From: a virus
Lineage: Duplodnaviria > Heunggongvirae > Uroviricota > Caudoviricetes
IMG/VR virus record: IMGVR_UViG_2609459834_000009
Location: 1 to 25,515 of that record
Length of the DNA: 25,515 nucleotides
Reading direction: 5' to 3' (one strand)
Shown: one piece after another, positions 3,363-25,515 of the stretch
Layout of the letters: each line of letters starts with the position of its first letter
Position numbering within the stretch: the stretch's first letter is position 1
Translations under genes and position numbers: made by a program
Notes under the pieces: model-generated
What the model saw: only the letters and a program-made list of their open reading frames with translations
What the model was told of the DNA's origin: nothing
The model's database searches: none

Positions 3363-3704
3363 ATGGCAATTAATGGCGCTGCAGCAACTGTTCCATTAAG
3401 CCCCGGTGAACGCCTGAATGGACTTAATCACATTGCAGAGTTAAGGGCGAAAGTATTTGGCCTGAATATTGAGTCAGAGCTTGAGCGGTTTATTAAAGAT
3501 ATACGTGATCCACGGGATGTTAATTATGAACGAAATAAACGGGCACTGGCTGCTATATTCTTTATAGCAAAAATTCCAGCTGAACGTCATAGCATCAGCA
3601 TTAATGAACTGACCACTGACGAAAAGCGGGAGTTGATTAAAGTAATGAATCATCTTCGTGCAGTGGTGAGCTTATTTCCCAGACGGCTAGCCATGCCGAA
3701 TTAA
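3363..3704 (+). CDS. Hypothetical early protein
   Basis: 113-aa ORF, ATG with G-rich RBS, same strand in early operon. Confidence 0.55.
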   Translation: MAINGAAATVPLSPGERLNGLNHIAELRAKVFGLNIESELERFIKDIRDPRDVNYERNKRALAAIFFIAKIPAERHSISINELTTDEKRELIKVMNHLRAVVSLFPRRLAMPN

Positions 3705-3771
3705 CCAATTAATGAAATTCATGGCGTAAACCCGCCGGGCATTCCTTTATCTAAATTCAGGAGAATTGATT

Positions 3772-5086: not shown

Positions 5087-7497
5087 GTCATGCCGATATG
5101 AACAACTGCTGCGGCTTTAACGAGGCTGCCGCAGCATTCTCATGGAACAGCCCGAAAAAGGCCATTAACCCTTATCTGGACCCGGCGGAAGTTGCGCCGG
5201 TTTCTACGCTTTCAAACCTGATCACTCTGTACGCTGCCGATAACGAGCAGGAACAGTTGCGCCGCGAGGCACTGAGTGATCAGGTCTGGGAGCGTTATTT
5301 CTTTAATGAATCACGTGATCCTGTCCAGCGCGAAATGGAGCAGGATAAGCTCATTAGCCGGGCAAAGCTGGCGCATGAGCAGCAGCGTTTTAATTCAGAC
5401 ATGGTCATTCTGGCGGACGTCAACGCCCAGCCTTCCCATATCAGCAAGCCGCTGATGCAACGTATTGAATACTTCAGCAGCCTGGGCAGGCCAAAGGCTT
5501 ATTCCCGCTATTTACGTGAGACGATTAAGCCATGTCTGGAACGACTGGAGCATGTACGCGACAGTCAGCTATCTGCATCTTTTCGCTTTATGGCAAGCCA
5601 TGAAGGGCTGGACGGCCTGCTGATCCTGCCTGAAATGAGTCAGGATCAGGTGAAACGCCTGTCCACCCTGGTAGCTGCGCATATGAGTATGTGCCTTGAT
5701 GCAGCTTGTGGTGATTTGTATGCCACCGATGACGTTAAGCCAGAAGAAATCCGCAAGACATGGGAAAAGGTGGCAGCGGAAACCCTGCGTCTGGATGTCA
5801 TCCCACCTGCGTTTGAGCAACTCCGTCGGAAAAGAAACCGCCGTAAACCCGTGCCCTATGAACTCATTCCGGGTTCGCTGGCGCGTATGTTGTGCGCCGA
5901 CTGGTGGTACCGGAAATTATGGAAGATGCGTTGCGAATGGCGGGAAGAGCAGTTGCGCGCTGTTTGCCTGGTCAGCAAAAAAGCATCTCCTTATGTCAGC
6001 TATGAAGCCGTGATGCATAAACGTGAGCAGCGCCGTAAGTCGCTGGAGTTTTTCCGTTCTCATGAACTGGTGAACGAAGACGGCGACACGCTGGACATGG
6101 AGGATGTGGTAAACGCCAGCAGCAGCAACCCTGCGCATCGCCGCAATGAGATGATGGCCTGTGTTAAAGGTCTGGAGCTTATCGCGGAAATGCGCGGTGA
6201 CTGCGCCGTTTTCTACACTATCACCTGTCCGTCGCGTTTCCATTCCACGCTAAATAACGGCAGACCAAACCCGACCTGGACAAACGCGACGGTAAGACAA
6301 AGCAGCGATTATCTGGTCGGCATGTTTGCTGCATTTCGTAAGGCGATGCACAAAGCCGGGTTGCGCTGGTATGGCGTGCGGGTGGCTGAGCCGCATCATG
6401 ATGGCACAGTTCACTGGCACCTGTTGTGTTTCATGCGCAAAAAAGACCGCCGTGCCATCACTGCATTACTGCGTAAGTTTGCCATCCGTGAAGACCGCGA
6501 GGAGCTGGGCAATAACACTGGGCCGCGCTTTAAGTCTGAGTTGATTAACCCGCGCAAAGGAACGCCGACAAGCTACATCGCGAAATATATCAGTAAGAAC
6601 ATTGACGGTCGTGGTCTGGCTGGCGAGATCAGCAAGGAAACGGGTAAATCTCTGCGTGATAACGCTGAATACGTGAATGCCTGGGCGTCTCTGCATCGTG
6701 TTCAGCAATTCCGCTTCTTTGGTATTCCGGGGCGTCAGGCTTACCGTGAACTTCGCTTGCTGGCTGGTCAGGCGGCAAGGCAACAGGGTGACAAAAAAGC
6801 AGGTGCGCCGGTACTGGATAACCCGCGTCTTGATGCCATTCTGGCTGCTGCTGATGCTGGTTGTTTTGCCACCTACATCATGAAGCAGAGCGGCGTACTG
6901 GTTCCCCGTAAATATCACCTCATCAGAACCGCTTATGAAATCAACGAAGAGCCGACCGCCTATGGCGATCACGGCATTCGTATTTATGGCATCTGGTCAC
7001 CCATTGCAGAGGGCAAGATCTGCACTCATGCAGTGAAGTGGAAAATGGTTCGTAAAGCCGTTGACGTTCAGGAGGCGGCAGCCGACCAGGGCGCTTGCGC
7101 CCCTTGGACTCGTGGCAATAACTGTCCCCTTGCTGAAAATTTGAACCAACAAGGGAAAGACAAATCAGCTGATGGGGATACCAGGACGGACATTACCCGC
7201 ATGGATGACAAGGAGTTGCACGATTACCTGCACAGTATGAGCAAAAAAGAGCGCCGGGAACTGGCTGCAAGGTTACGCCTGGTGAAGCCGAAACGGCGTA
7301 AAGACTACAAACAGCGAATTACAGACCATCAGCGACAGCAGCTCGTCTATGAACTGAAGTCCAGAGGATTTGATGGCAGCGAGAAAGAGGTCGATTTACT
7401 CCTTCGCGGCGGCAGTATTCCGTCAGGAGCAGGCCTGCGTATCTTCTATCGGAACCAGCGTTTGCAGGAAGATGATAAGTGGCGAAACCTGTATTAA
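5083..7497 (+). CDS. A: Replication initiation endonuclease (P2 gene A family, rolling-circle)
   Basis: 804-aa product with HUH-like motif (HWHLLCF) and YIAKYISKN active-site tyrosine region; ATGA overlap with dam stop. Confidence 0.85.
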
Positions 7498-7589
7498 TTA
7501 CGCGGGTTAACAATTCGTGCTCTTAATAATACCAGGCATATCAGGCTGATGAACGTAAAAAAACGTTTTACATCAGTAAGATTATTATA

Positions 7590-7609
7590 TACTGTAAATA
7601 TAAACAGTG
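7590..7609. promoter_or_regulatory. LexA (SOS) box, CTGT-N8-ACAG
   Basis: tACTGTaaatataaACAGtg, a near-consensus SOS box, about 45 bp upstream of the ORF at 7651 and overlapping AT-rich promoter-like sequence. Confidence 0.65.
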
Positions 7610-7650
7610 GTTATACATACAGTATTGCTTGTGGTGTCATAGGAGGAAAG

Positions 7651-7839
7651 ATGCAGGACTATTTTTTGGAGTCTTTGAAGCTCCAGCGCATTGATTTTTT
7701 TCTTAAGCTTGTAGCGGCTAGTGAGTGTAGTGATGAAGAGAAGGGGCTGGCTTTGCAGTGGGTTTCTGAACTGACAGATGAACTCATGGCAAAAATCAGA
7801 ACCCACGAATACAACCGCTCAATGGATGTCATCAGCTGA
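7651..7839 (+). CDS. Small SOS-regulated hypothetical protein (first gene of tum-like module)
   Basis: 62-aa ORF, ATG at 7651 with AGGAGG RBS; ORF-track start 7549 rejected because it would read through the LexA box. Confidence 0.5.
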   Translation: MQDYFLESLKLQRIDFFLKLVAASECSDEEKGLALQWVSELTDELMAKIRTHEYNRSMDVIS

Positions 7840-7849
7840 GGTGACTTTT

Positions 7850-8083
7850 ATGCGCATTGAAATAATGATCGATAAAGAGCAGAAGATTAGCCAGTCTACC
7901 CTGGACGCCCTTGAATCCGAGCTTTACCGCAATCTGCGCCCTATGTATCCCAAAACGGTAATTCGTATCCGCAAAGGTAGCTCTAACGGTGTAGAACTTA
8001 CCGGATTGCAACTGGACGAAGAAAGAAAACAAGTGATGAAAATTATGCAGAAGGTGTGGGAAGACGACAGCTGGCTGCATTAA
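7850..8083 (+). CDS. DinI-family protein
   Basis: 77-aa product MRIEIMIDKEQ...VWEDDSWLH with the DinI N- and C-terminal signatures (MRIE..., WE.D.W); GAGGTG RBS. Confidence 0.75.
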   Translation: MRIEIMIDKEQKISQSTLDALESELYRNLRPMYPKTVIRIRKGSSNGVELTGLQLDEERKQVMKIMQKVWEDDSWLH

Positions 8084-8218
8084 GAAACGTTGCTGGCGTC
8101 TGAACTTGTTTCTGGCGTCAGCAAGGTTGAACAACGAGCCCTTGCGAGGCGTTAGCTCTGTAGTGCATGTCTATGCCGCATGAGATCGCATGATCGTTTG
8201 AGGATCGTTTTTGCTAAG

Positions 8219-8242
8219 GCCCGCCAGAACTGGCGGGCTTTT
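8219..8242 (+). terminator. Rho-independent terminator after the SOS module
   Basis: GCCCGCCA-gaac-TGGCGGGC hairpin followed by TTTT. Confidence 0.6.
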
Positions 8243-8306: not shown

Positions 8307-8378
8307 CGCGCGCCATGTGGTATGGAGATTGGATCTATTCATAACTTGATGTATAAAGTAGAAAAAAGCGGGGAGATT

Positions 8379-9302
8379 ATGAATAAAAAATTTACCGATG
8401 AGCAGCAACAACAGCTTATAGGACATCTCACAAAGAAAGGCTTCTATCGAGGAGCTAATATTAAAATAACCATTTTTCTATGTGGTGGTGACGTTGCTAA
8501 TCATCAATCTTGGCGTCATCAATTATCACAATTTTTAGCAAAGTTCAGTGATGTTGATATATTTTATCCAGAAGATCTATTTGATGATCTTTTGGCTGGT
8601 CAAGGGCAGCATAGCCTTTTAAGTTTAGAAAATATTCTGGCTGAAGCTGTCGATGTAATAATTTTATTTCCTGAAAGTCCGGGGTCTTTCACAGAGCTTG
8701 GTGCGTTCTCTAATAATGAAAACTTAAGGAGAAAGTTGATTTGCATTCAAGATGCAAAATTTAAATCAAAACGTAGCTTTATTAACTATGGTCCTGTTCG
8801 CCTGTTGCGTAAGTTTAATTCAAAATCTGTTTTGCGTTGTAGTTCAAATGAACTAAAAGAAATGTGTGATTCATCTATTGATGTTGCCAGAAAATTACGA
8901 TTATATAAAAAATTAATGGCATCTATTAAGCAGGTTAGGAAAGAAAATAAAGTATCAAAAGATATTGGAAATATATTATACGCAGAGCGGTTTCTATTGC
9001 CTTGTATCTATTTACTGGATAGTGTCAACTACCGCACACTGTGTGAACTAGCTTTTAAAGCGATAAAGCAAGATGATGTTTTATCTAAAATTATTGTTAG
9101 ATCCGTTGTTTCTCGTCTAATAAATGAACGAAAAATACTTCAAATGACTGATGGTTATCAGGTCACTGCTTTGGGGGCTAGCTATGTTAGGAGCGTCTTT
9201 GATAGAAAGACACTTGACCGATTGCGGCTTGAGATTATGAATTTTGAAAACCGTAGAAAATCAACATTTAACTATGATAAGATTCCGTATGCGCACCCTT
9301 AG
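8379..9302 (+). CDS. Retron effector protein (putative nucleoside 2-deoxyribosyltransferase-like N-domain plus C-terminal domain)
   Basis: 308-aa ORF in AT-rich DNA immediately upstream of msr-msd; its stop codon (TAG 9300-9302) lies inside the a1 repeat. Start ambiguous (ATG at 8322, 8349 or 8379). Confidence 0.7.
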   Translation: MNKKFTDEQQQQLIGHLTKKGFYRGANIKITIFLCGGDVANHQSWRHQLSQFLAKFSDVDIFYPEDLFDDLLAGQGQHSLLSLENILAEAVDVIILFPESPGSFTELGAFSNNENLRRKLICIQDAKFKSKRSFINYGPVRLLRKFNSKSVLRCSSNELKEMCDSSIDVARKLRLYKKLMASIKQVRKENKVSKDIGNILYAERFLLPCIYLLDSVNYRTLCELAFKAIKQDDVLSKIIVRSVVSRLINERKILQMTDGYQVTALGASYVRSVFDRKTLDRLRLEIMNFENRRKSTFNYDKIPYAHP

Positions 9303-9458
9303 CGAGAGGTTTATCATTAAGGTCAACCTCTGGATGTTGTTTCGGCATCCTGCATTGAATCTGAGTTACTGTCTGTTTTCCTTGTTGGAACGGAGAGCAT
9401 CGCCTGATGCTCTCCGAGCCAACCAGGAAACCCGTTTTTTCTGACGTAAGGGTGCGCA
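9290..9458 (+). ncRNA. msr-msd: Retron msr-msd non-coding RNA (template/primer for msDNA)
   Basis: Flanked by 12-nt inverted repeats a1 TGCGCACCCTTA (9290-9301) and a2 TAAGGGTGCGCA (9447-9458); internal msr hairpin AGAGGTT/AACCTCT and long imperfect msd stem around GGAGAGCATC-gcct-GATGCTCTCC; sits directly upstream of the RT gene. Matches my recollection of the Ec86 ncRNA. Confidence 0.85.
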
Positions 9459-9464
9459 ACTTTC

Positions 9465-10427
9465 ATGAAATCCGCTGAATATTTGAACACTTTTAGATTG
9501 AGAAATCTCGGCCTACCTGTCATGAACAATTTGCATGACATGTCTAAGGCGACTCGCATATCTGTTGAAACACTTCGGTTGTTAATCTATACAGCTGATT
9601 TTCGCTATAGGATCTACACTGTAGAAAAGAAAGGCCCAGAGAAGAGAATGAGAACCATTTACCAACCTTCTCGAGAACTTAAAGCCTTACAAGGATGGGT
9701 TCTACGTAACATTTTAGATAAACTGTCGTCATCTCCTTTTTCTATTGGATTTGAAAAGCACCAATCTATTTTGAATAATGCTACCCCGCATATTGGGGCA
9801 AACTTTATACTGAATATTGATTTGGAGGATTTTTTCCCAAGTTTAACTGCTAACAAAGTTTTTGGAGTGTTCCATTCTCTTGGTTATAATCGACTAATAT
9901 CTTCAGTTTTGACAAAAATATGTTGTTATAAAAATCTGCTACCACAAGGTGCTCCATCATCACCTAAATTAGCTAATCTAATATGTTCTAAACTTGATTA
10001 TCGTATTCAGGGTTATGCAGGTAGTCGGGGCTTGATATATACGAGATATGCCGATGATCTCACCTTATCTGCACAGTCTATGAAAAAGGTTGTTAAAGCA
10101 CGTGATTTTTTATTTTCTATAATCCCAAGTGAAGGATTGGTTATTAACTCAAAAAAAACTTGTATTAGTGGGCCTCGTAGTCAGAGGAAAGTTACAGGTT
10201 TAGTTATTTCACAAGAGAAAGTTGGGATAGGTAGAGAAAAATATAAAGAAATTAGAGCAAAGATACATCATATATTTTGCGGTAAGTCTTCTGAGATAGA
10301 ACACGTTAGGGGATGGTTGTCATTTATTTTAAGTGTGGATTCAAAAAGCCATAGAAGATTAATAACTTATATTAGCAAATTAGAAAAAAAATATGGAAAG
10401 AACCCTTTAAATAAAGCGAAGACCTAA
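9465..10427 (+). CDS. ret: Retron-type reverse transcriptase
   Basis: 320-aa product with RT motifs QGAPSSPKLANL and YADD, plus the retron-characteristic VTG motif (RKVTGLVI). Confidence 0.9.
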   Translation: MKSAEYLNTFRLRNLGLPVMNNLHDMSKATRISVETLRLLIYTADFRYRIYTVEKKGPEKRMRTIYQPSRELKALQGWVLRNILDKLSSSPFSIGFEKHQSILNNATPHIGANFILNIDLEDFFPSLTANKVFGVFHSLGYNRLISSVLTKICCYKNLLPQGAPSSPKLANLICSKLDYRIQGYAGSRGLIYTRYADDLTLSAQSMKKVVKARDFLFSIIPSEGLVINSKKTCISGPRSQRKVTGLVISQEKVGIGREKYKEIRAKIHHIFCGKSSEIEHVRGWLSFILSVDSKSHRRLITYISKLEKKYGKNPLNKAKT

Positions 10428-18744: not shown

Positions 18745-19183
18745 ACTGCAGAAGGTGGACGACTGGCTGAGTGCCTTGCTGGCGAATCTGGAACCAGCCA
18801 CGAGAAGCCGTATGATGCGCCAGCTGGCGCAGGAATTGCGCCGGACACAGCAGCAGAATATCAGGATGCAGCGCAATCCAGATGGCAGCAGTTATGAACC
18901 GCGCAGGGTAACAGCACGCAGCAAGAAGGGGCGCATCAAACGTCAGATGTTTGCAAAGCTGCGCACCACAAAATACCTGAAAACTGCCGCCAGCGCCGAC
19001 TCTGCCAGCGTACAGTTTGAAGGCAAGGTGCAGCGTATTGCCCGTGTTCACCATTACGGCCTGCGTGATCGCGTCAGTCGCAAAGGACCGGAGGTCCGTT
19101 ACGCAGAGCGCCGCCTGCTGGGTGTAAATGATGATGTTGAGGCAATGACCCGCGACATGATTCTGCAATGGCTGGCGGGGTGA
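18737..19183 (+). CDS. S: Tail completion / virion morphogenesis protein S (P2 gpS family)
   Basis: 148-aa product (DDWLSALLANLEP...) resembling P2 gpS; GTG start overlapping R stop. Confidence 0.75.
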   Translation: MAELQKVDDWLSALLANLEPATRSRMMRQLAQELRRTQQQNIRMQRNPDGSSYEPRRVTARSKKGRIKRQMFAKLRTTKYLKTAASADSASVQFEGKVQRIARVHHYGLRDRVSRKGPEVRYAERRLLGVNDDVEAMTRDMILQWLAG

Positions 19184-19187
19184 TCTT

Positions 19188-19205
19188 TGTATCAGCACTG
19201 ATACA
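19188..19205. promoter_or_regulatory. TGT-N12-ACA near-perfect palindrome between S and V (candidate late-activator site and/or S terminator hairpin)
   Basis: TGTATCAGcaCTGATACA directly after the S stop; no U-tract follows. Confidence 0.35.
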
Positions 19206-19251
19206 AGTTGCAGCACTGCCGCCTTTCTTCCCCTGATGGCAACCTTTCCCT

Positions 19252-19830
19252 ATGAACGCACAATTAACCGAAATCATGCGCCTTATCACCAATCTGATCC
19301 GCACAGGTGTAGTCACCGAAGTGGACCGGGAAAACTGGCTTTGTCGGGTGAAAACGGGCGACCTTGAAACCAACTGGATTAACTGGCTGACGCTGCGCGC
19401 GGGTAATGCCCGCACATGGTGGAAACCATCGGAAGGTGAGCAGGTGGTGCTGCTGAGTCTGGGAGGCAATCTGGAAACCGCGTTTGCGCTGCCCGCCATC
19501 TATTCGAATCAGCTCGCGCCACCGTCGACGTCGGCGGACGCCTGCGTGACAGAACATCCTGACGGTGGCTGGTTTGAATATGAACCCGCCACCGGGCGCT
19601 GGTATGTCAGGGGCATCAAATCAATGGTCATTGAGGCCGCTGACAACATCACCATGAAAACCAGTGAGTTTGTACTGGAGGCTGACCGCACGCGCATTAA
19701 CAGCGAAGTGGTGATCAATGGTGGCGTTACCCAGGGCGGCGGAGCGATGAGTTCTAACGGGATCGTGGTTGATGCGCATCAGCATACTGGCGTCCTGAAA
19801 GGCGGCGACACAACCGGAGGCCCGGTATGA
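19252..19830 (+). CDS. V: Baseplate spike/assembly protein V (P2 gpV family)
   Basis: 192-aa product aligning with P2 gpV from the first Met (NLIRTGVVTEVD, TWWKPSEGEQVVLLSLGG). Confidence 0.85.
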   Translation: MNAQLTEIMRLITNLIRTGVVTEVDRENWLCRVKTGDLETNWINWLTLRAGNARTWWKPSEGEQVVLLSLGGNLETAFALPAIYSNQLAPPSTSADACVTEHPDGGWFEYEPATGRWYVRGIKSMVIEAADNITMKTSEFVLEADRTRINSEVVINGGVTQGGGAMSSNGIVVDAHQHTGVLKGGDTTGGPV

Positions 19831-20186
19831 CGCTTTATAGCGGGATGAACAATACCAGCGGTAAAGCCATTACTGATATTGACCATCTGCGCCAGTCGGT
19901 GCGGGACATTCTGCTGACGCCGCAGGGTAGCCGCATTGCTCGTCGGGAATATGGTTCCCTGCTGTCGGCACTGATAGATCAGCCACAAAATCCGGCGTTA
20001 CGCCTGCAGGTTATGTCGGCTGTGTATGTGGCACTGAGTCGCTGGGAGCCACGGCTGGCGCTGGATTCCATCACTATTAACAGCAATTTTGACGGTTCAA
20101 TGGTGGTGGCGCTGAACGGGCGGCGTAATAACGGTGTGCCTGTTTCCCTTTCCGTATCAACAGGAGCAGAGAATGGCAGTGATTGA
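19827..20186 (+). CDS. W: Baseplate wedge protein W (GPW/gp25 family)
   Basis: 119-aa product, ATGA overlap with V stop. Confidence 0.85.
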   Translation: MTLYSGMNNTSGKAITDIDHLRQSVRDILLTPQGSRIARREYGSLLSALIDQPQNPALRLQVMSAVYVALSRWEPRLALDSITINSNFDGSMVVALNGRRNNGVPVSLSVSTGAENGSD

Positions 20187-21081
20187 CCTTTCGCAGTTGC
20201 CTGCGCCGCAGATTGTGGATGTGCCGGACTTTGAGACGCTGCTTGCCGAACGCAAGGCAGAATTTGTGGCGCTTCATCCGAAAGATGAGCAGGAAGCAGT
20301 GATCCGCACGCTGGAACTGGAATCTGAACCCGTCACCAAATTGCTGCAGGAGAACGCTTACCGTGAGTTGCTTCTGCGCCAGCGCATTAACGAAGCCGCG
20401 CAGGCTGTGATGGTGGCTTACGCGATGGGCAGCGATCTTGACCAGCTCGCTGCCAACTACAACGTGAAACGCCTGACGGTGACGCCTGCTGATAATGACG
20501 CTGTGCCGCCCGTTGCAGCTGTGATGGAAAGCGATGAAGCGTTACGCCTGCGTGTGCCTGCAGCCTTTGAAGGGCTTTCAGTTGCGGGGCCAACTGCAGC
20601 TTATGAATTTCATGCCCAAAGCGCCGACGGTCGGGTGGCGGATGCCAGTGCAACCAGCCCGGCACCTGCAGAGGTGGTGCTGACTGTCCTTAGCCGCGAA
20701 GGCGATGGAACTGCAGAAAAAGACCTGCTGGACGTGGTGGAAAAAGCTCTGAACAGTGAGAACGTCCGCCCGGTGGCTGACCGTCTTACGGTTCGCAGCG
20801 CAGAAATCATCCCGTATCGCGTGGAAGCCACCATTTTTCTCTATCCGGGACCGGAAGCAGAGCCGGTAATGGCAGCGGCAAAAGCCAGCCTGCAGAAGTA
20901 CATCGCCAGTCAGACACGTCTTGGTCGGGATATTCGCCGTAGCGCCATCTTTGCCGCCCTGCATGTTGAGGGTGTGCAGCGTGTGGAGCTGGCTTCTCCT
21001 CTGGCGGATGTGGTCCTGAACAAAACACAGGCGGCATCATGTACGCAGTGGAGCGTAACCAACGGAGGAACGGATGAATAG
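20173..21081 (+). CDS. J: Baseplate assembly protein J (P2 gpJ family)
   Basis: 302-aa product from ATG at 20173 with AGGAG RBS; track start 20134 rejected. Confidence 0.85.
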   Translation: MAVIDLSQLPAPQIVDVPDFETLLAERKAEFVALHPKDEQEAVIRTLELESEPVTKLLQENAYRELLLRQRINEAAQAVMVAYAMGSDLDQLAANYNVKRLTVTPADNDAVPPVAAVMESDEALRLRVPAAFEGLSVAGPTAAYEFHAQSADGRVADASATSPAPAEVVLTVLSREGDGTAEKDLLDVVEKALNSENVRPVADRLTVRSAEIIPYRVEATIFLYPGPEAEPVMAAAKASLQKYIASQTRLGRDIRRSAIFAALHVEGVQRVELASPLADVVLNKTQAASCTQWSVTNGGTDE

Positions 21082-21679
21082 TCTGCTGCCGCCGGGTTCA
21101 ACACCACTGGAGCGCCGACTGGCGCAAACCTGCAGCGGGATTTCTGATCTGCAGGTGCCGCTTCGTGACTTGTGGAATCCGGCAACCTGTCCGGTCAGTT
21201 TCCTGCCTTATCTCGCCTGGGCGTTCTCTGTGGATCGCTGGGACGAGGGCTGGACAGAAAGCGTCAAGCGCCAGGTGGTGAAGGATGCTTTTTATATTCA
21301 TCAGCATAAAGGGACCACCAGTGCCGTGCGGCGGGTGGTGGAGCCGTTCGGCTTTCTGATTCGCATTATTGAGTGGTGGCAGACCGGAGAGGCACCGGGC
21401 ACGTTTCGCCTGGATATCGGCGTGCAGGACCAGGGCATCACTGAAGATACCTATCTGGAACTTGAGCGACTGATAAGCGATGCCAAACCATGTAGCCGCC
21501 ACATGATCGGCATGTCCATCAATCTGCAGACCAGCGGCCCGCATTGGGTGGGAGCCGCCAGCTATCTTGGCGAAGAAATCACGATCTATCCGTATATCAA
21601 CGAAACGATTATTTCCGGTGGCACCGCGCATGAAGGCGGGGCGGTCCATGTTATTGACACAATGAGAGTGAATCCATGA
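21074..21679 (+). CDS. I: Baseplate/tail protein I (P2 gpI family)
   Basis: 201-aa product, GGAGG RBS, overlap with J stop; conserved position between J and the tail fibre gene. Confidence 0.8.
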   Translation: MNSLLPPGSTPLERRLAQTCSGISDLQVPLRDLWNPATCPVSFLPYLAWAFSVDRWDEGWTESVKRQVVKDAFYIHQHKGTTSAVRRVVEPFGFLIRIIEWWQTGEAPGTFRLDIGVQDQGITEDTYLELERLISDAKPCSRHMIGMSINLQTSGPHWVGAASYLGEEITIYPYINETIISGGTAHEGGAVHVIDTMRVNP

Positions 21680-23415
21680 GCACAAAATTTTATACCCTGC
21701 TGACGGATATTGGCGCGGCGAAACTTGCCAGCGCCGCCGCGCTCGGTGTGCCGCTAAAAATTACCCATATGGCGGTGGGCGATGGCGGCGGAGTATTGCC
21801 AACGCCGGACGCAAAGCAGACGGCACTGGTAAATGAGAAACGCCGGGCTGCGCTGAATATGCTTTATATCGACCCGCAGAACAGCAGCCAGATTATTGCT
21901 GAACAGGTGATCCCTGAAAACGAGGGCGGTTGGTGGATACGTGAAGTGGGCCTGTTTGATGAGTCCGGGGCATTGATTGCCGTGGGAAACTGCCCGGAAA
22001 GCTATAAGCCGCAACTGGCTGAAGGCAGCGGGCGTACCCAGACCGTGCGCATGGTGCTGATTACCAGCAGTACGGACAATATCACCCTGAAAATCGACCC
22101 TGCTGTAGTGCTGGCAACCCGCAAGTATGTGGATGACAAGGCACTGGAGCTGAAGGTGTACGCGGATGATCAGATGGCAAAACATCTTGCCGCACCGGAC
22201 CCGCATTCACAGTACGCGCCAAAAGCCAGCCCGACATTTACCGGAACCCCCAAAGCGCCAACGCCAGCGGCGGGGAATAATACCACGCAGGTTGCGACCA
22301 CTGCGTTTGTACAGGCGGCACTGACGGACCTTATTAATGGTGCGCCAGCCACGCTGGACACGCTGAAAGAAATAGCCGCAGCCATTAACAATGATCCGAA
22401 TTTCAGTACCACCATTAACAATGCGCTGGCACTAAAAGCACCGTTGTCGAGTCCGGCACTCACCGGAACGCCAACAGCCCCCACGGCGGCGCAGTCGGTC
22501 AACAATACACAGATTGCCACTACGGCTTTTGTGAAATCGGCGATTGCAGGAATGGTGGGTTCTGCACCTGCTGCACTGGATACACTGAACGAACTGGCGG
22601 CGGCACTGGGGAATGATCCGAACTTTGCCACGACAATGCTTAATGCGCTGGCAGGTAAACAACCGCTGGACAATACGCTTACCAATTTGAGTGGAAAGGA
22701 TGTAGCTGGTCTTCTCACATACCTTGGTATTAAAAACGCATCAACAACACAGGTGGGTTTAGTCCGGTTAACGTCATCGCGGGTATCGGGTGCAGAGGAT
22801 ATTGCAGCCACAGCTAATGCTGTCGCGCAAAACTATACGGACATAAAATCTTTGCAAAACAAAACTCAGGATTCAACTACGACACAGAAAGGAATTGTTC
22901 AACTTACATCATCAAGGGTATCCGAATCTGAAACGCTTGCTGCAACAGCAAAAGCGGCAGCGATGAATTATGCGGATATTGTAGCTCTGCAAGGCAAGAC
23001 TAATGATGCAACCACTACAAACAAGGGAATTATCCGCGTATCTGATTCCAGAACATCAACAGAATCTGGTGTTGCTGCATCATCACTTGCTGCATCACAA
23101 AACTATTCAGATATGAAAGGGTTGTTTGGTCAATGCGGAATGAAATCTAGAAATCTCGGTGTCGTATACACCAACAGCCAGTCTTTCGCCATATTTGTAA
23201 GCGTCAATGCGGTGCTGTCTGACGGTAGTTCATTTCTGAGCGCCAACGTAAGCGTGGATGGTAATTCGGCTAATTTTCGCGGCTCTCAGACAACAAATCT
23301 TGCAGGGCAAAGAGCAACTATCGCATTCATGGTTCCTGCCGGTGCGACCTATATTGTGCAGCAGTTTTCAGGAACAGTGTCAGATGTTACCTGGGTAGAG
23401 GTGGATAAAAAATGA
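21676..23415 (+). CDS. H: Tail fibre protein H with internal repeats and an AT-rich C-terminal receptor-binding region
   Basis: 579-aa product; conserved P2-H-like N-terminus; two tandem ~72-aa repeats and three ~43-aa repeats; composition shifts to AT-rich after about 22670. Confidence 0.85.
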   Translation: MSTKFYTLLTDIGAAKLASAAALGVPLKITHMAVGDGGGVLPTPDAKQTALVNEKRRAALNMLYIDPQNSSQIIAEQVIPENEGGWWIREVGLFDESGALIAVGNCPESYKPQLAEGSGRTQTVRMVLITSSTDNITLKIDPAVVLATRKYVDDKALELKVYADDQMAKHLAAPDPHSQYAPKASPTFTGTPKAPTPAAGNNTTQVATTAFVQAALTDLINGAPATLDTLKEIAAAINNDPNFSTTINNALALKAPLSSPALTGTPTAPTAAQSVNNTQIATTAFVKSAIAGMVGSAPAALDTLNELAAALGNDPNFATTMLNALAGKQPLDNTLTNLSGKDVAGLLTYLGIKNASTTQVGLVRLTSSRVSGAEDIAATANAVAQNYTDIKSLQNKTQDSTTTQKGIVQLTSSRVSESETLAATAKAAAMNYADIVALQGKTNDATTTNKGIIRVSDSRTSTESGVAASSLAASQNYSDMKGLFGQCGMKSRNLGVVYTNSQSFAIFVSVNAVLSDGSSFLSANVSVDGNSANFRGSQTTNLAGQRATIAFMVPAGATYIVQQFSGTVSDVTWVEVDKK

Positions 23416-23780
23416 TAACAATGATGAAGTATTACAAAGATGAAAATAACGTCGTATATGCCTACGATGCGTATGGCACACAGGATGCTTTTATCAAAGA
23501 AGGGCTTGTGCCAATCACCAGAAGTGAGGCTATGGCAATTATTAATCCCCCACCGACTCATGAACAACTCATCCAGGCTGCTGAAAATGAGCGACAGCGA
23601 TTACTGTCCGCCGCTGATGCAATTATGCTCGACTGGCGCACAGAGCTGATGCTGGGTGAAATCAGCGATGCCAACAGAGCTAAACTTTCGGCGTGGCTTT
23701 TATATAAGAATCAGGTTAAGGCTGTTGATGTAACAACCGACCCTGAGCATGTTAACTGGCCTGTCATCCCGGAACTTTAG
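23412..23780 (+). CDS. G: Tail fibre assembly chaperone (gpG/Tfa family)
   Basis: 122-aa ORF immediately after H with ATGA overlap; AT-rich like the H C-terminus. Confidence 0.7.
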   Translation: MITMMKYYKDENNVVYAYDAYGTQDAFIKEGLVPITRSEAMAIINPPPTHEQLIQAAENERQRLLSAADAIMLDWRTELMLGEISDANRAKLSAWLLYKNQVKAVDVTTDPEHVNWPVIPEL

Positions 23781-23785
23781 CTGGT

Positions 23786-23971
23786 TTGGCTATTGCCAGA
23801 TCCAAAGGCCGGATTGGTGGGCGTAGACCGAAGTTTAGCGACGAGCAGTGGCAACAGATGGGAGCGCTCATAGCGGCAGGGAAATCACGGCGTTATGTTG
23901 CACGTATCTATAACGTTGGGCTATCAACCCTATATAAACGATTTCCTGTTACTGGCATTCAAACGAAATAA
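23786..23971 (+). pseudogene. C-terminal fragment of a Gin/Pin/Hin-type serine DNA invertase (HTH domain only)
   Basis: Translation LAIARSKGRIGGRRPKFSDEQWQQ...VGLSTLYKRFP matches the C-terminal DNA-binding domain of invertases; no catalytic N-terminal domain; no ATG (TTG in track); similarity begins about 23771, directly at the tfa stop. Confidence 0.6.
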
Positions 23972-24107
23972 TTTATTTAAAGAGTTATTTGTCTAATGTT
24001 GGAAGCCGCAGCCACGTCGTATGCAAGAACGTGCTGCGGCTGGCTGGAGAACTTTCGATAGTGCGAGTATTGAATGATTTCCAGCCGTTACCGATTTTAC
24101 GTGTTAA

Positions 24108-24356
24108 TTAGTGAACAAACCACTCGTCAGCAGATTCCCAGGTATCTTTCAGAGTCTCCTGAACAAAAGTTTTTGCAGAATCCTTATCTGCTGTGCGTGT
24201 AACAGAAAGGCCATCGTTGCTGGTGGCTTTTACGATCACCTCTACATCGTCATAACGTTTACTGATGCGTCGGGTTAATTCTTCCTTTAACGCATCCACA
24301 GCACCGGTTGGCATTTTAGTCATTTTTTCTTTGGCTATGCAGATTTCAATACGCAT
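24108..24356 (-). CDS. DinI-family protein (second paralog)
   Basis: 82-aa product [11 protein letters not shown]...[10 protein letters not shown], close to my recollection of E. coli DinI. Confidence 0.8.
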
Positions 24357-24369
24357 AAAAGTCCCTCTA

Positions 24370-24417
24370 TACTGTGTTTGTATACAGTATTATTTTTAAC
24401 TGTATAGATAAACAGTG
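24370..24417. promoter_or_regulatory. Two tandem LexA boxes upstream of the second dinI-like gene
   Basis: tACTGTgtttgtatACAGta (24370-24389) and aaCTGTatagataaACAGtg (24398-24417), both CTGT-N8-ACAG. Confidence 0.65.
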
Positions 24418-25515
24418 TCAAGAGGCCTTATTTCTGCTCCTTTGGAGCTCTTCAAAACGATTATGTAAAGATTTCGGATACAGTTCGGTATATACCTGCC
24501 ATAGCACGTTTAATGAACGATGCCCTGTAACCTGGGCGACTTCCTCAATACTAAAACCAGCCTCAAATAAGCGACTTGCCCCTTCTCTACGCAAATCATG
24601 GTATCGCAGATCTTTAATACCTAATTTGCTTCTTACCCTCTGGAATCCCGCAGTAACAGAAGTGCTGTTATATGGAAAAATGAATTCTGATTTTTTGGGT
24701 TGTCGTTGGACGATATCCCAGGCTTCCCCAAGCAAGGCTACTTTCATATGGTTGCCTTCCTTTTTACGTGGATCTTTCCTGTCTCTTACGAGTATGGATT
24801 TTTGTTCCTGATCGAGATCCTCCCATCGTAATCGGCATACTTCACCGATTCGCATACATGACCACACAGAAAATTTGAGGATATCAACGAACGGAATTTT
24901 TGAGCATTTATGTGTAGATCGTTGTTGAAGACCTTCAATGAGCATGTCCAGTTCATCAGATGCCGGTCTACGATTACGACGATTTGATTTACCAATTAAA
25001 CCAAGTTTAAGTAGATATGGACGAGCGGCTTTTGCTGGGTTTGATGTGTAATTAATTCCATATACAGGTTTGGCAGCATCCAGAACACTGCCAAGATAAC
25101 TAACATCGTGGCTAACTGTAGCTGGACCTGCACCAGCGTTGTTTCTTAGCCTGCAATGTTCAATTACGTCATTTTCTGTCAGTTCAGATAGTTTGATCGC
25201 GGAGATGTCACTATCCATAAGCAGTTCCAGCACATATCTTTTAGTACGGCCTGCTTTACCTCCGGCATTTGGGTCATTTAAATATTTGTGTAGTAAGTCA
25301 CGGACTGTAAGTCCGTCAACTGCATTTGATGATGGAATGCCATATAGATCTAATTCCATCACTTTCTGTGTGCCCCATGTTTTGGCATGAGCATGTTTAG
25401 GGAATGTTTTACTTTCCCTGTAAGTGATAACACCTTTTTCTTTGATAATCACATTACAGCGATAGCGTGGTGTGCCATCGGATTTTAGTCGTTTCTCTAT
25501 GTTATAGTACGCCAT
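24418..25515 (-). CDS. Tyrosine-type integrase of a second integrative element (start at window edge; may be N-terminally incomplete)
   Basis: 365-aa translation with phage-integrase C-terminal catalytic region (HDLRREGASRL, ...VYTELYP); the ATG at 25513-25515 is the last codon of the window. Confidence 0.75.
   Translation of the reverse strand: MAYYNIEKRLKSDGTPRYRCNVIIKEKGVITYRESKTFPKHAHAKTWGTQKVMELDLYGIPSSNAVDGLTVRDLLHKYLNDPNAGGKAGRTKRYVLELLMDSDISAIKLSELTENDVIEHCRLRNNAGAGPATVSHDVSYLGSVLDAAKPVYGINYTSNPAKAARPYLLKLGLIGKSNRRNRRPASDELDMLIEGLQQRSTHKCSKIPFVDILKFSVWSCMRIGEVCRLRWEDLDQEQKSILVRDRKDPRKKEGNHMKVALLGEAWDIVQRQPKKSEFIFPYNSTSVTAGFQRVRSKLGIKDLRYHDLRREGASRLFEAGFSIEEVAQVTGHRSLNVLWQVYTELYPKSLHNRFEELQRSRNKAS

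Follow-up and report, generated by a model that had tools for sequence, protein, structure and literature searches.

The closest described systems are the Fis-dependent inversion switches Gin/G of Mu, Cin/C of P1 and Pin/P of e14, and for gin, hin and cin the recombinational enhancer is known to lie in the 5' part of the invertase gene. Prophages with dusA-associated integrases have reportedly been described as well (Farrugia et al., 2015); a literature search on invertases of dusA prophages returned nothing relevant. Active inversion was reported for two P2-like prophages and a Mu prophage of strain E2348/69 (Goldberg et al., 2014; PMC4272514). The locus presented here lies in a stretch of 25,515 nt, which was analysed over its whole length and is called the window below. 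Intact relatives of this locus share with the Gin, Cin and Pin switches the order of constant fibre, site, two convergent arms of fibre tip and tfa, second site and invertase, whereas in the window a single site and the enzyme's DNA-binding third are left, so that no inversion is possible. With the invertible fibre segments of E2348/69 it has the phage group and the kind of switch in common, and P2-like relatives carry tfa, a site and an invertase in front of FI; it differs from them in being an inactivated allele. From dusA-associated integrase prophages it differs to the left of its final 1.7 kb, where the window contains a P2/186-like prophage beside ybjK instead of a dusA element.

The invertase relic occupies positions 23772-23971 on the + strand and corresponds to residues T123-K187 plus stop, comprising the end of helix E, the GRIGGRRPK arm and HTH_7. 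Its frame opens after a TAA at 23753-23755 and runs as a second frame beside tfa, open from 23756 to the stop at 23969-23971 and encoding ..GTLAGLAIARSKGRIGGRRPKFSDEQWQQMGALIAAGKSRRYVARIYNVGLSTLYKRFPVTGIQTK; translated in full, 23756-23971 reads LACHPGTLAGLAIARSKGRIGGRRPKFSDEQWQQMGALIAAGKSRRYVARIYNVGLSTLYKRFPVTGIQTK and a stop. The original prediction that the translation from about 23771 matches the C-terminal domain of Gin/Pin/Cin/Hin-type invertases proved sound. The Pfam resolvase HTH model HTH_7 was matched with E=1.2e-12 and 48 bits (cutoff 23.8 bits), residues 123-181 of the solved Gin (3uj3) with E=1.5e-17 and the DNA-binding domain of Hin (1hcr) with E=4e-5, and the hallmark of serine invertases, a C-terminal HTH_7 preceded by a GR(I/V)GGR(R/P)PK minor-groove arm, is present. 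An intact homolog, sought in related prophages, was found in strain EC2001 (locus L001), whose invertase has 187 aa (WP_000639148.1). With this protein as tblastn query only residues 123-187 align (23774-23968, 98.5% identity, E=5e-39), and the DNA of the relic, 203 nt, equals nt 365-567 of the L001 gene with one difference (99.5% identity). The similarity had been said to begin exactly at the tfa stop, which is correct within 9 nt, DNA identity starting at 23772 and the tfa stop being located at 23778-23780.

Residues 1-121 of the intact relative found no match by tblastn over the whole window (best E=0.38), and in the relic Pfam gave only HTH_7, with neither a catalytic domain (Resolvase, PF00239) nor an active-site serine. 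As the N-terminal 121 residues are unmatched in the window, a frameshift cannot rebuild the gene, and the objection that a simple frameshift might restore an intact invertase falls away. The absence of a start codon is likewise confirmed: the earliest in-frame starts are TTG at 23786 and ATG at 23857, a complete ORF with start codon and promoter of its own is lacking, and a + strand sigma-70-like promoter was not found near the relic. By its sequence the parent invertase belonged to a divergent subfamily (MIYGYVRVSTNHQDTELQ...YNFRNILSAAQYESDLNSERT), unlike the Gin/Pin core type of L005 and L017. The relic reads as an ordinary pseudogene: of a Gin/Pin-family serine invertase gene only the 3' third is left, and it is dead. 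This kind of pseudogene is already known, and finished E. coli genomes already carry its truncated-gene annotation; the RefSeq label for the same sequence is 'helix-turn-helix domain-containing protein; incomplete; missing N-terminus', and PGAP treats it as an incomplete pseudogene. Annotators should therefore label it as a pseudogene of an invertase, not as an 'HTH protein'. Decayed Pin-family genes annotated as pseudogenes in prophage remnants are comparable, namely K-12 pinH (b2648), which differs in retaining a piece of the catalytic domain and not the HTH, and the invertase of 1217KP, which was split by IS66, whereas the window has a clean microhomology deletion adjoining tfa.

The tail fibre gene H (21676-23415, + strand) is of P2 type and encodes 579 aa with a constant N-terminal and a variable C-terminal part (Pfam Phage_tail_fib E=6.7e-65, Phage_fiber_2); its identity to the H gene in the P2-like prophage of strain 23AR0998 is 98.9%. 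The tail fibre assembly chaperone gene tfa (23412-23780, + strand; 122 aa, Pfam Caudo_TAP E=1.4e-18) is intact, and the same 122-aa protein is encoded in loci with the junction described below and in loci in which tfa has its native 3' flank alike. The C-terminal part of H and tfa constitute a variable cassette (22721-23779, + strand; delimited by blastn and SNP tables) common to three prophage backbones with 97.7-99.6% identity (blastn against five relatives' loci), within which the 383 nt of 23397-23779 are invariant in every copy examined. SNP phasing of a switch from P2-type to dusA-type sequence within the cassette gave no resolution, because the alleles form a mosaic over the backbones and 23397-23779 does not vary. 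At 23250-23253, in the fibre tip, the window has private substitutions, A.GC versus T.AT in 15 of 15 relatives, which alter one codon (Ser vs Asn).

The surviving left crossover site, which is gix/pix-like, reads TTCTCACATACC TT GGTATTAAAAAC and is located at 22712-22737, at the constant/variable boundary of H. It resembles the 12+2+12 sites of the relatives with their AAACC/GGTTT core, and dusA prophages have CTCTCGAAAACC TT GGTATTAAAAAC at the equivalent place. When the window was scanned with a weight matrix built from 12 distinct half-sites of nine real sites in relatives' loci, the H site was the only outlier (22.3, next best 14.5), a score that is partly circular because the H site is itself among the nine. 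Independent support comes from other P2-like H genes, whose similarity stops at 22728-22740, and the cassette common to dusA and E2348/69 prophages starts at 22721-22723; the breakpoints (22721-22740) coincide with the site and place it at the constant/variable boundary of the fibre, as in inversion switches. A second inverted crossover site was not found by the matrix scan in the 25.5 kb, in which 22712-22737 is the single site-like sequence. The runner-up match, ATGTCACAATCG AA CGTTATAGCGAA at 2201-2226 near the start of the CI repressor (14.5), is probably due to chance.

In L001 the genes are arranged as fibre, tfa, convergent tfa', alternative fibre tip, invertase, DinI, int and dusA, and the inverted sites are found at 3696-3715, within the fibre gene, and at 5551-5570, about 70 bp upstream of the invertase ATG. 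P2-like relatives show tfa, about 90 bp with a hairpin, the right crossover site, an intact invertase and the sheath gene FI; those with the native tfa flank include 23AR0998, Z1323HEC0011 and several draft genomes. For the comparison of parental sequences the native tfa 3' flank of six loci (L004, L005, L012, L015, L017, L020) and the intact invertase of L001 were used. The native tfa end is CCGGAACTTTAA/G, continued by ACCATACTGG; the gene thus ends in ...CCGGAACTTTAA or ...TAG, and ACCATACTGGTCTTGCT...AGCAAGACCAG, a terminator-like hairpin, follows. At the corresponding place the intact invertase reads GAGCGAACTTTAGCTGGTTTGG, and the window reads CCGGAACTTTAGCTGGTTTGG across the join. The parental sequences overlap at the join only in GAACTTTA(G), 8-9 nt that occur once where native tfa ends and once in codons 122-124 of the invertase (nt 365-373 in the gene of L001) and of which one copy is kept, at 23772-23780. 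A direct repeat in both parents and a single copy at the join are what a slippage-type deletion leaves behind.

Judged by the relatives, the ancestor would have carried constant fibre, left site, variable fibre and tfa, right site, invertase, DinI and int, possibly with a convergent alternative arm between tfa and the right site. A single deletion would have fused the repeat at the tfa stop to its copy in the invertase gene, leaving tfa unharmed. It would have removed the hairpin and everything between tfa and the right crossover site; certainly lost are this site itself, the invertase promoter and codons 1-121, which encode the catalytic Ser domain and the greater part of helix E. To judge by gin, hin and cin, the Fis-dependent enhancer in the 5' coding region of the invertase was probably lost as well. 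The earlier view of the locus as a relic of a tail-fibre inversion system, produced by deletion and devoid of the catalytic domain, is thus borne out by the parental comparison, which adds the loss of the right crossover site. With one site and neither enhancer nor enzyme, the fibre segment is locked in its expressed orientation and the switch can no longer operate in cis. As an example, of minor importance, the locus illustrates how a host-range switch is lost through a deletion between 8-9-nt repeats that spares the chaperone gene.

If the geometry was that of L012 and the alternative arm was missing, the loss would amount to at least about 541 bp. The alternative tail-fibre segment was also supposed to have probably been removed; it may have been, close relatives occurring both with and without the arm. 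A reverse-strand fibre or tfa ORF is absent from 23780-24108 and present in L001, L017 and L020; among relatives with native flanks the arm has 157 aa in L017, 140 aa in L020 and only seven codons in L004, L005 and L012. In the latter three, inversion would make H end in LTYL followed by RFEQEE and a stop, and with the arm cut to seven codons the apparently intact switches would toggle between a full and a truncated fibre. The pre-deletion allele, in which the cassette would be followed by an intact WP_000639148-type invertase, was not found among the relatives' loci, and a metagenome scan for a P2-type right half-site joined to the 5' end of an L001-type invertase gave 0 matches; for this reason we only infer how much was deleted and whether an alternative arm existed.

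L012, which has the native tfa flank and an L001-type region upstream of the invertase, was considered as direct ancestor and rejected, its invertase turning Pin-like after codon 11. This chimeric gene (6456-7104 of L012) combines the L001-type upstream region and first 11 codons with Pin/Gin-like sequence, so that recombination took place inside invertase genes. In L005 (region 5760-5850) the right crossover site reads TTCGAAACG AA CGTTTAAGAAAA, and in L004 (region 5760-8240) TTCGAAACG AA CCTTTTTAAAAC ... AGCTTTTTAAGG AA CGTTTAAGAAAA, a module of invertase, DinI, hypothetical gene, hemerythrin and DinI apparently having been inserted at the central AA. From its sequence, this module looks like an invertase-mediated capture of a circular cassette.

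The identical junction was detected in the finished genomes of EcPF16, E2348/69 (four assemblies) and OZ038585.1 and in several drafts, and eight relatives' loci show it together with a near-identical 203-nt fragment. The prophage of E2348/69 with the identical stub, located at argW/intS, is separate from the inverting prophages of this strain, and its fibre gene is broken. All copies of the 203-nt stub have Q149, versus K in the intact L001 invertase, and in total they differ by one synonymous SNP; the junction and the Q149 allele, shared by all, point to a single origin of the deletion. Every junction copy found is from E. coli. An exact-pattern scan of species-representative genomes for the junction gave 0 matches, and the phage collection contained no junction; the matches there were to an intact invertase in phage SKA5 (97%) and to a distant tfa in SEN34. 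The stub adjoins three baseplate modules, i.e. Mu-like gp45-48, the E2348/69 type and the P2-like module of this window. Cassette and stub would have moved between backbones by recombination in conserved flanks, with the region of the fibre crossover site serving at the left end and the invertase/DinI/int module at the right end, and the allele would in this way document a fibre-tip cassette and its scar travelling between unrelated prophage backbones.

Downstream of the stub, the window contains the right-end module of dusA prophages, with a DinI-like gene (24108-24356, - strand; Pfam DinI E=1.1e-19) and a dusA-associated tyrosine integrase of 365 aa (24418-25515, - strand; Pfam Phage_integrase E=1.1e-20), which is situated 88 bp from the start of dusA in the source contig and in relatives. 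The order invertase-DinI-int-dusA is the same in three relatives' loci, and the right 1.7 kb (stub, DinI, int and dusA 5' end) match the int-proximal end of dusA prophages with 99.8-100% identity. The source is draft contig JNPE01000026.1 (GCA_000703505.1), whose left flank is ybjG-mdfA-ybjH-ybjI-ybjJ-ybjK and whose right flank is dusA, the contig ending 104 nt into this gene. Adjoining ybjK is a P2/186-like prophage with int, CI, gpA, retron, Q, P, O, N ... V, W, J, I, H and tfa; missing from the assembled prophage is the P2-like tail gene block FI-FII-E-T-U-D-ogr, and with it the genes for sheath, tube and tape measure as well as gpU, gpD and ogr. In this contig the stub marks the place where a P2/186-like prophage at ybjK, which is tail-less, meets a dusA prophage at the latter's int end. 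A frozen host range, as originally proposed, may not apply to the P2-like prophage of the window, where the question is moot because the assembled prophage is without tail genes.

As to the mechanism, the junction is very probably a microhomology deletion, caused by replication slippage or microhomology-mediated illegitimate recombination and not by invertase catalysis, for which the 8-9-nt overlap is strong but circumstantial evidence. The proposal of a deletion or aberrant inversion at a crossover site did not withstand the comparison with the parents: apart from the short repeat they share nothing at the join, the surroundings of the junction score at background in the matrix scan (best -9.0, rank 2181/25490) with the pre-deletion sequences no better, and an aberrant inversion is superfluous because both partners are on the same strand. 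A fusion catalysed by the invertase at GAACTTTAG, be it by recombination of a true crossover site with a quasi-site in the invertase gene or by aberrant inversion, would find a point of attack in the weak half-site-like GGTTTGG immediately right of the join on the invertase side, Cin reportedly uses quasi-cix sites (Iida & Hiestand-Nauer, 1986-87), and elsewhere in these loci modules switch precisely at the central AA of real sites. It is nevertheless very improbable: the best nearby half-site scores 0.7 (rank 1604/51008), the join is at least 1 nt left of the cut expected for a site centred on GGTTTGG, the native tfa flank has AC and not CT at the cut dinucleotide, and in the relatives neither the tfa stop nor codon 122 has a real site, such sites being confined to the fibre gene and to a place some 70 bp ahead of the invertase ATG. 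Moreover, the partners are directly oriented and the product retains one copy of the 9-nt repeat. After such a microhomology deletion the remainder of 65 codons is most likely non-functional and at most transcribed by read-through from tfa. It is hardly to be expected that the stub was domesticated as a stand-alone DNA-binding protein, started at TTG 23786 (61 aa) or coupled to tfa, which would bind gix-like sites and block inversion by other Pin-family enzymes, or regulate genes. The DNA-binding domain of Hin is a folded unit on its own, solved separately, the junction allele occurs in many assemblies and three backbones, and the frame is open in 9/9 copies examined, yet the last point is uninformative and neutral decay not distinguishable, since the copies are too similar. 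Against domestication stand the missing ATG and promoter, the lack of a Shine-Dalgarno-like sequence upstream of the TTG and of a PADLOC match for the stub, and hitch-hiking with the fibre cassette accounts for the spread. More remote still is the idea that a stub of 61-65 residues, expressed by read-through and coupling from tfa, which is conceivable because the tfa terminator hairpin was deleted too, acts as a catalytically dead competitor at gix/pix-like sites and damps inversions, of fibres or other segments, by co-resident Pin-family enzymes; if true, this could explain the spread of the allele onto three backbones.

A different question is whether the hybrid of P2-like and dusA prophage exists in the chromosome. 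There is an even chance that it is an assembly chimera, in which two prophages were joined through the shared cassette of variable H part and tfa (about 1 kb); in that case the stub would be part of an ordinary dusA prophage, while the P2-like prophage would go on beyond the cassette to an invertase and tail genes of its own. The contig is a draft, and its flanks fit the gene order and strands of K-12. From this we infer that recombination between direct repeats, had it really occurred, would have cost the chromosome about 3.4 Mb together with oriC or duplicated 1.27 Mb. None of 5426 complete E. coli genomes covers at least 80% of 19000-25515, and the invariant part of the cassette offers the assembler a perfect repeat of 383 nt to cross. 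The contig end within dusA also matches the 105-nt 5' fragment of dusA that is duplicated at the far end of the dusA prophage, which suggests that a complete dusA prophage is present. However, an assembler stopped by a repeat of about 100 nt would not be expected to pass a two-copy repeat of 383 nt, and the private substitutions in the fibre tip are compatible with a single real copy of the cassette. The hybrid arrangement is geometrically implausible, and the odds between a chimera and an unusual rearrangement are about even; in annotation it should be borne in mind that the contig may be mis-joined across a prophage repeat. Irrespective of this, the junction of tfa and stub is real because it is also found in finished genomes.

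In the P2/186-like prophage, between gpA/DinI and the portal gene Q, a type II-A retron pair was observed at 8322-10427, consisting of an NDT-type effector of 326 aa (PADLOC NDT_II-A, E=3.6e-94) and, downstream of it, a reverse transcriptase (RT_II-A, E=7e-128). Rfam, searched with the entire window, returned nothing, with no msr/msd RNA at gathering score. The dusA end module (invertase-DinI-int-dusA) is attached to a lambdoid siphovirus-type prophage in EC2001 (L023) and is also present with Mu-like-baseplate prophages and the E2348/69-type baseplate (L011 and L013, compared with L023), so that, as far as sequence can tell, it spans very different tail types. In EC2001 the integrase of the module is split by an IS3 element (6647-8969 of L001). 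The IS66 insertion in the module's invertase of 1217KP (1187-4200 of L021) is an inactivation independent of that in EC2001; 1217KP had been considered as a second, independent break at the position of the junction described here, and the insertion proved to be elsewhere in the gene.
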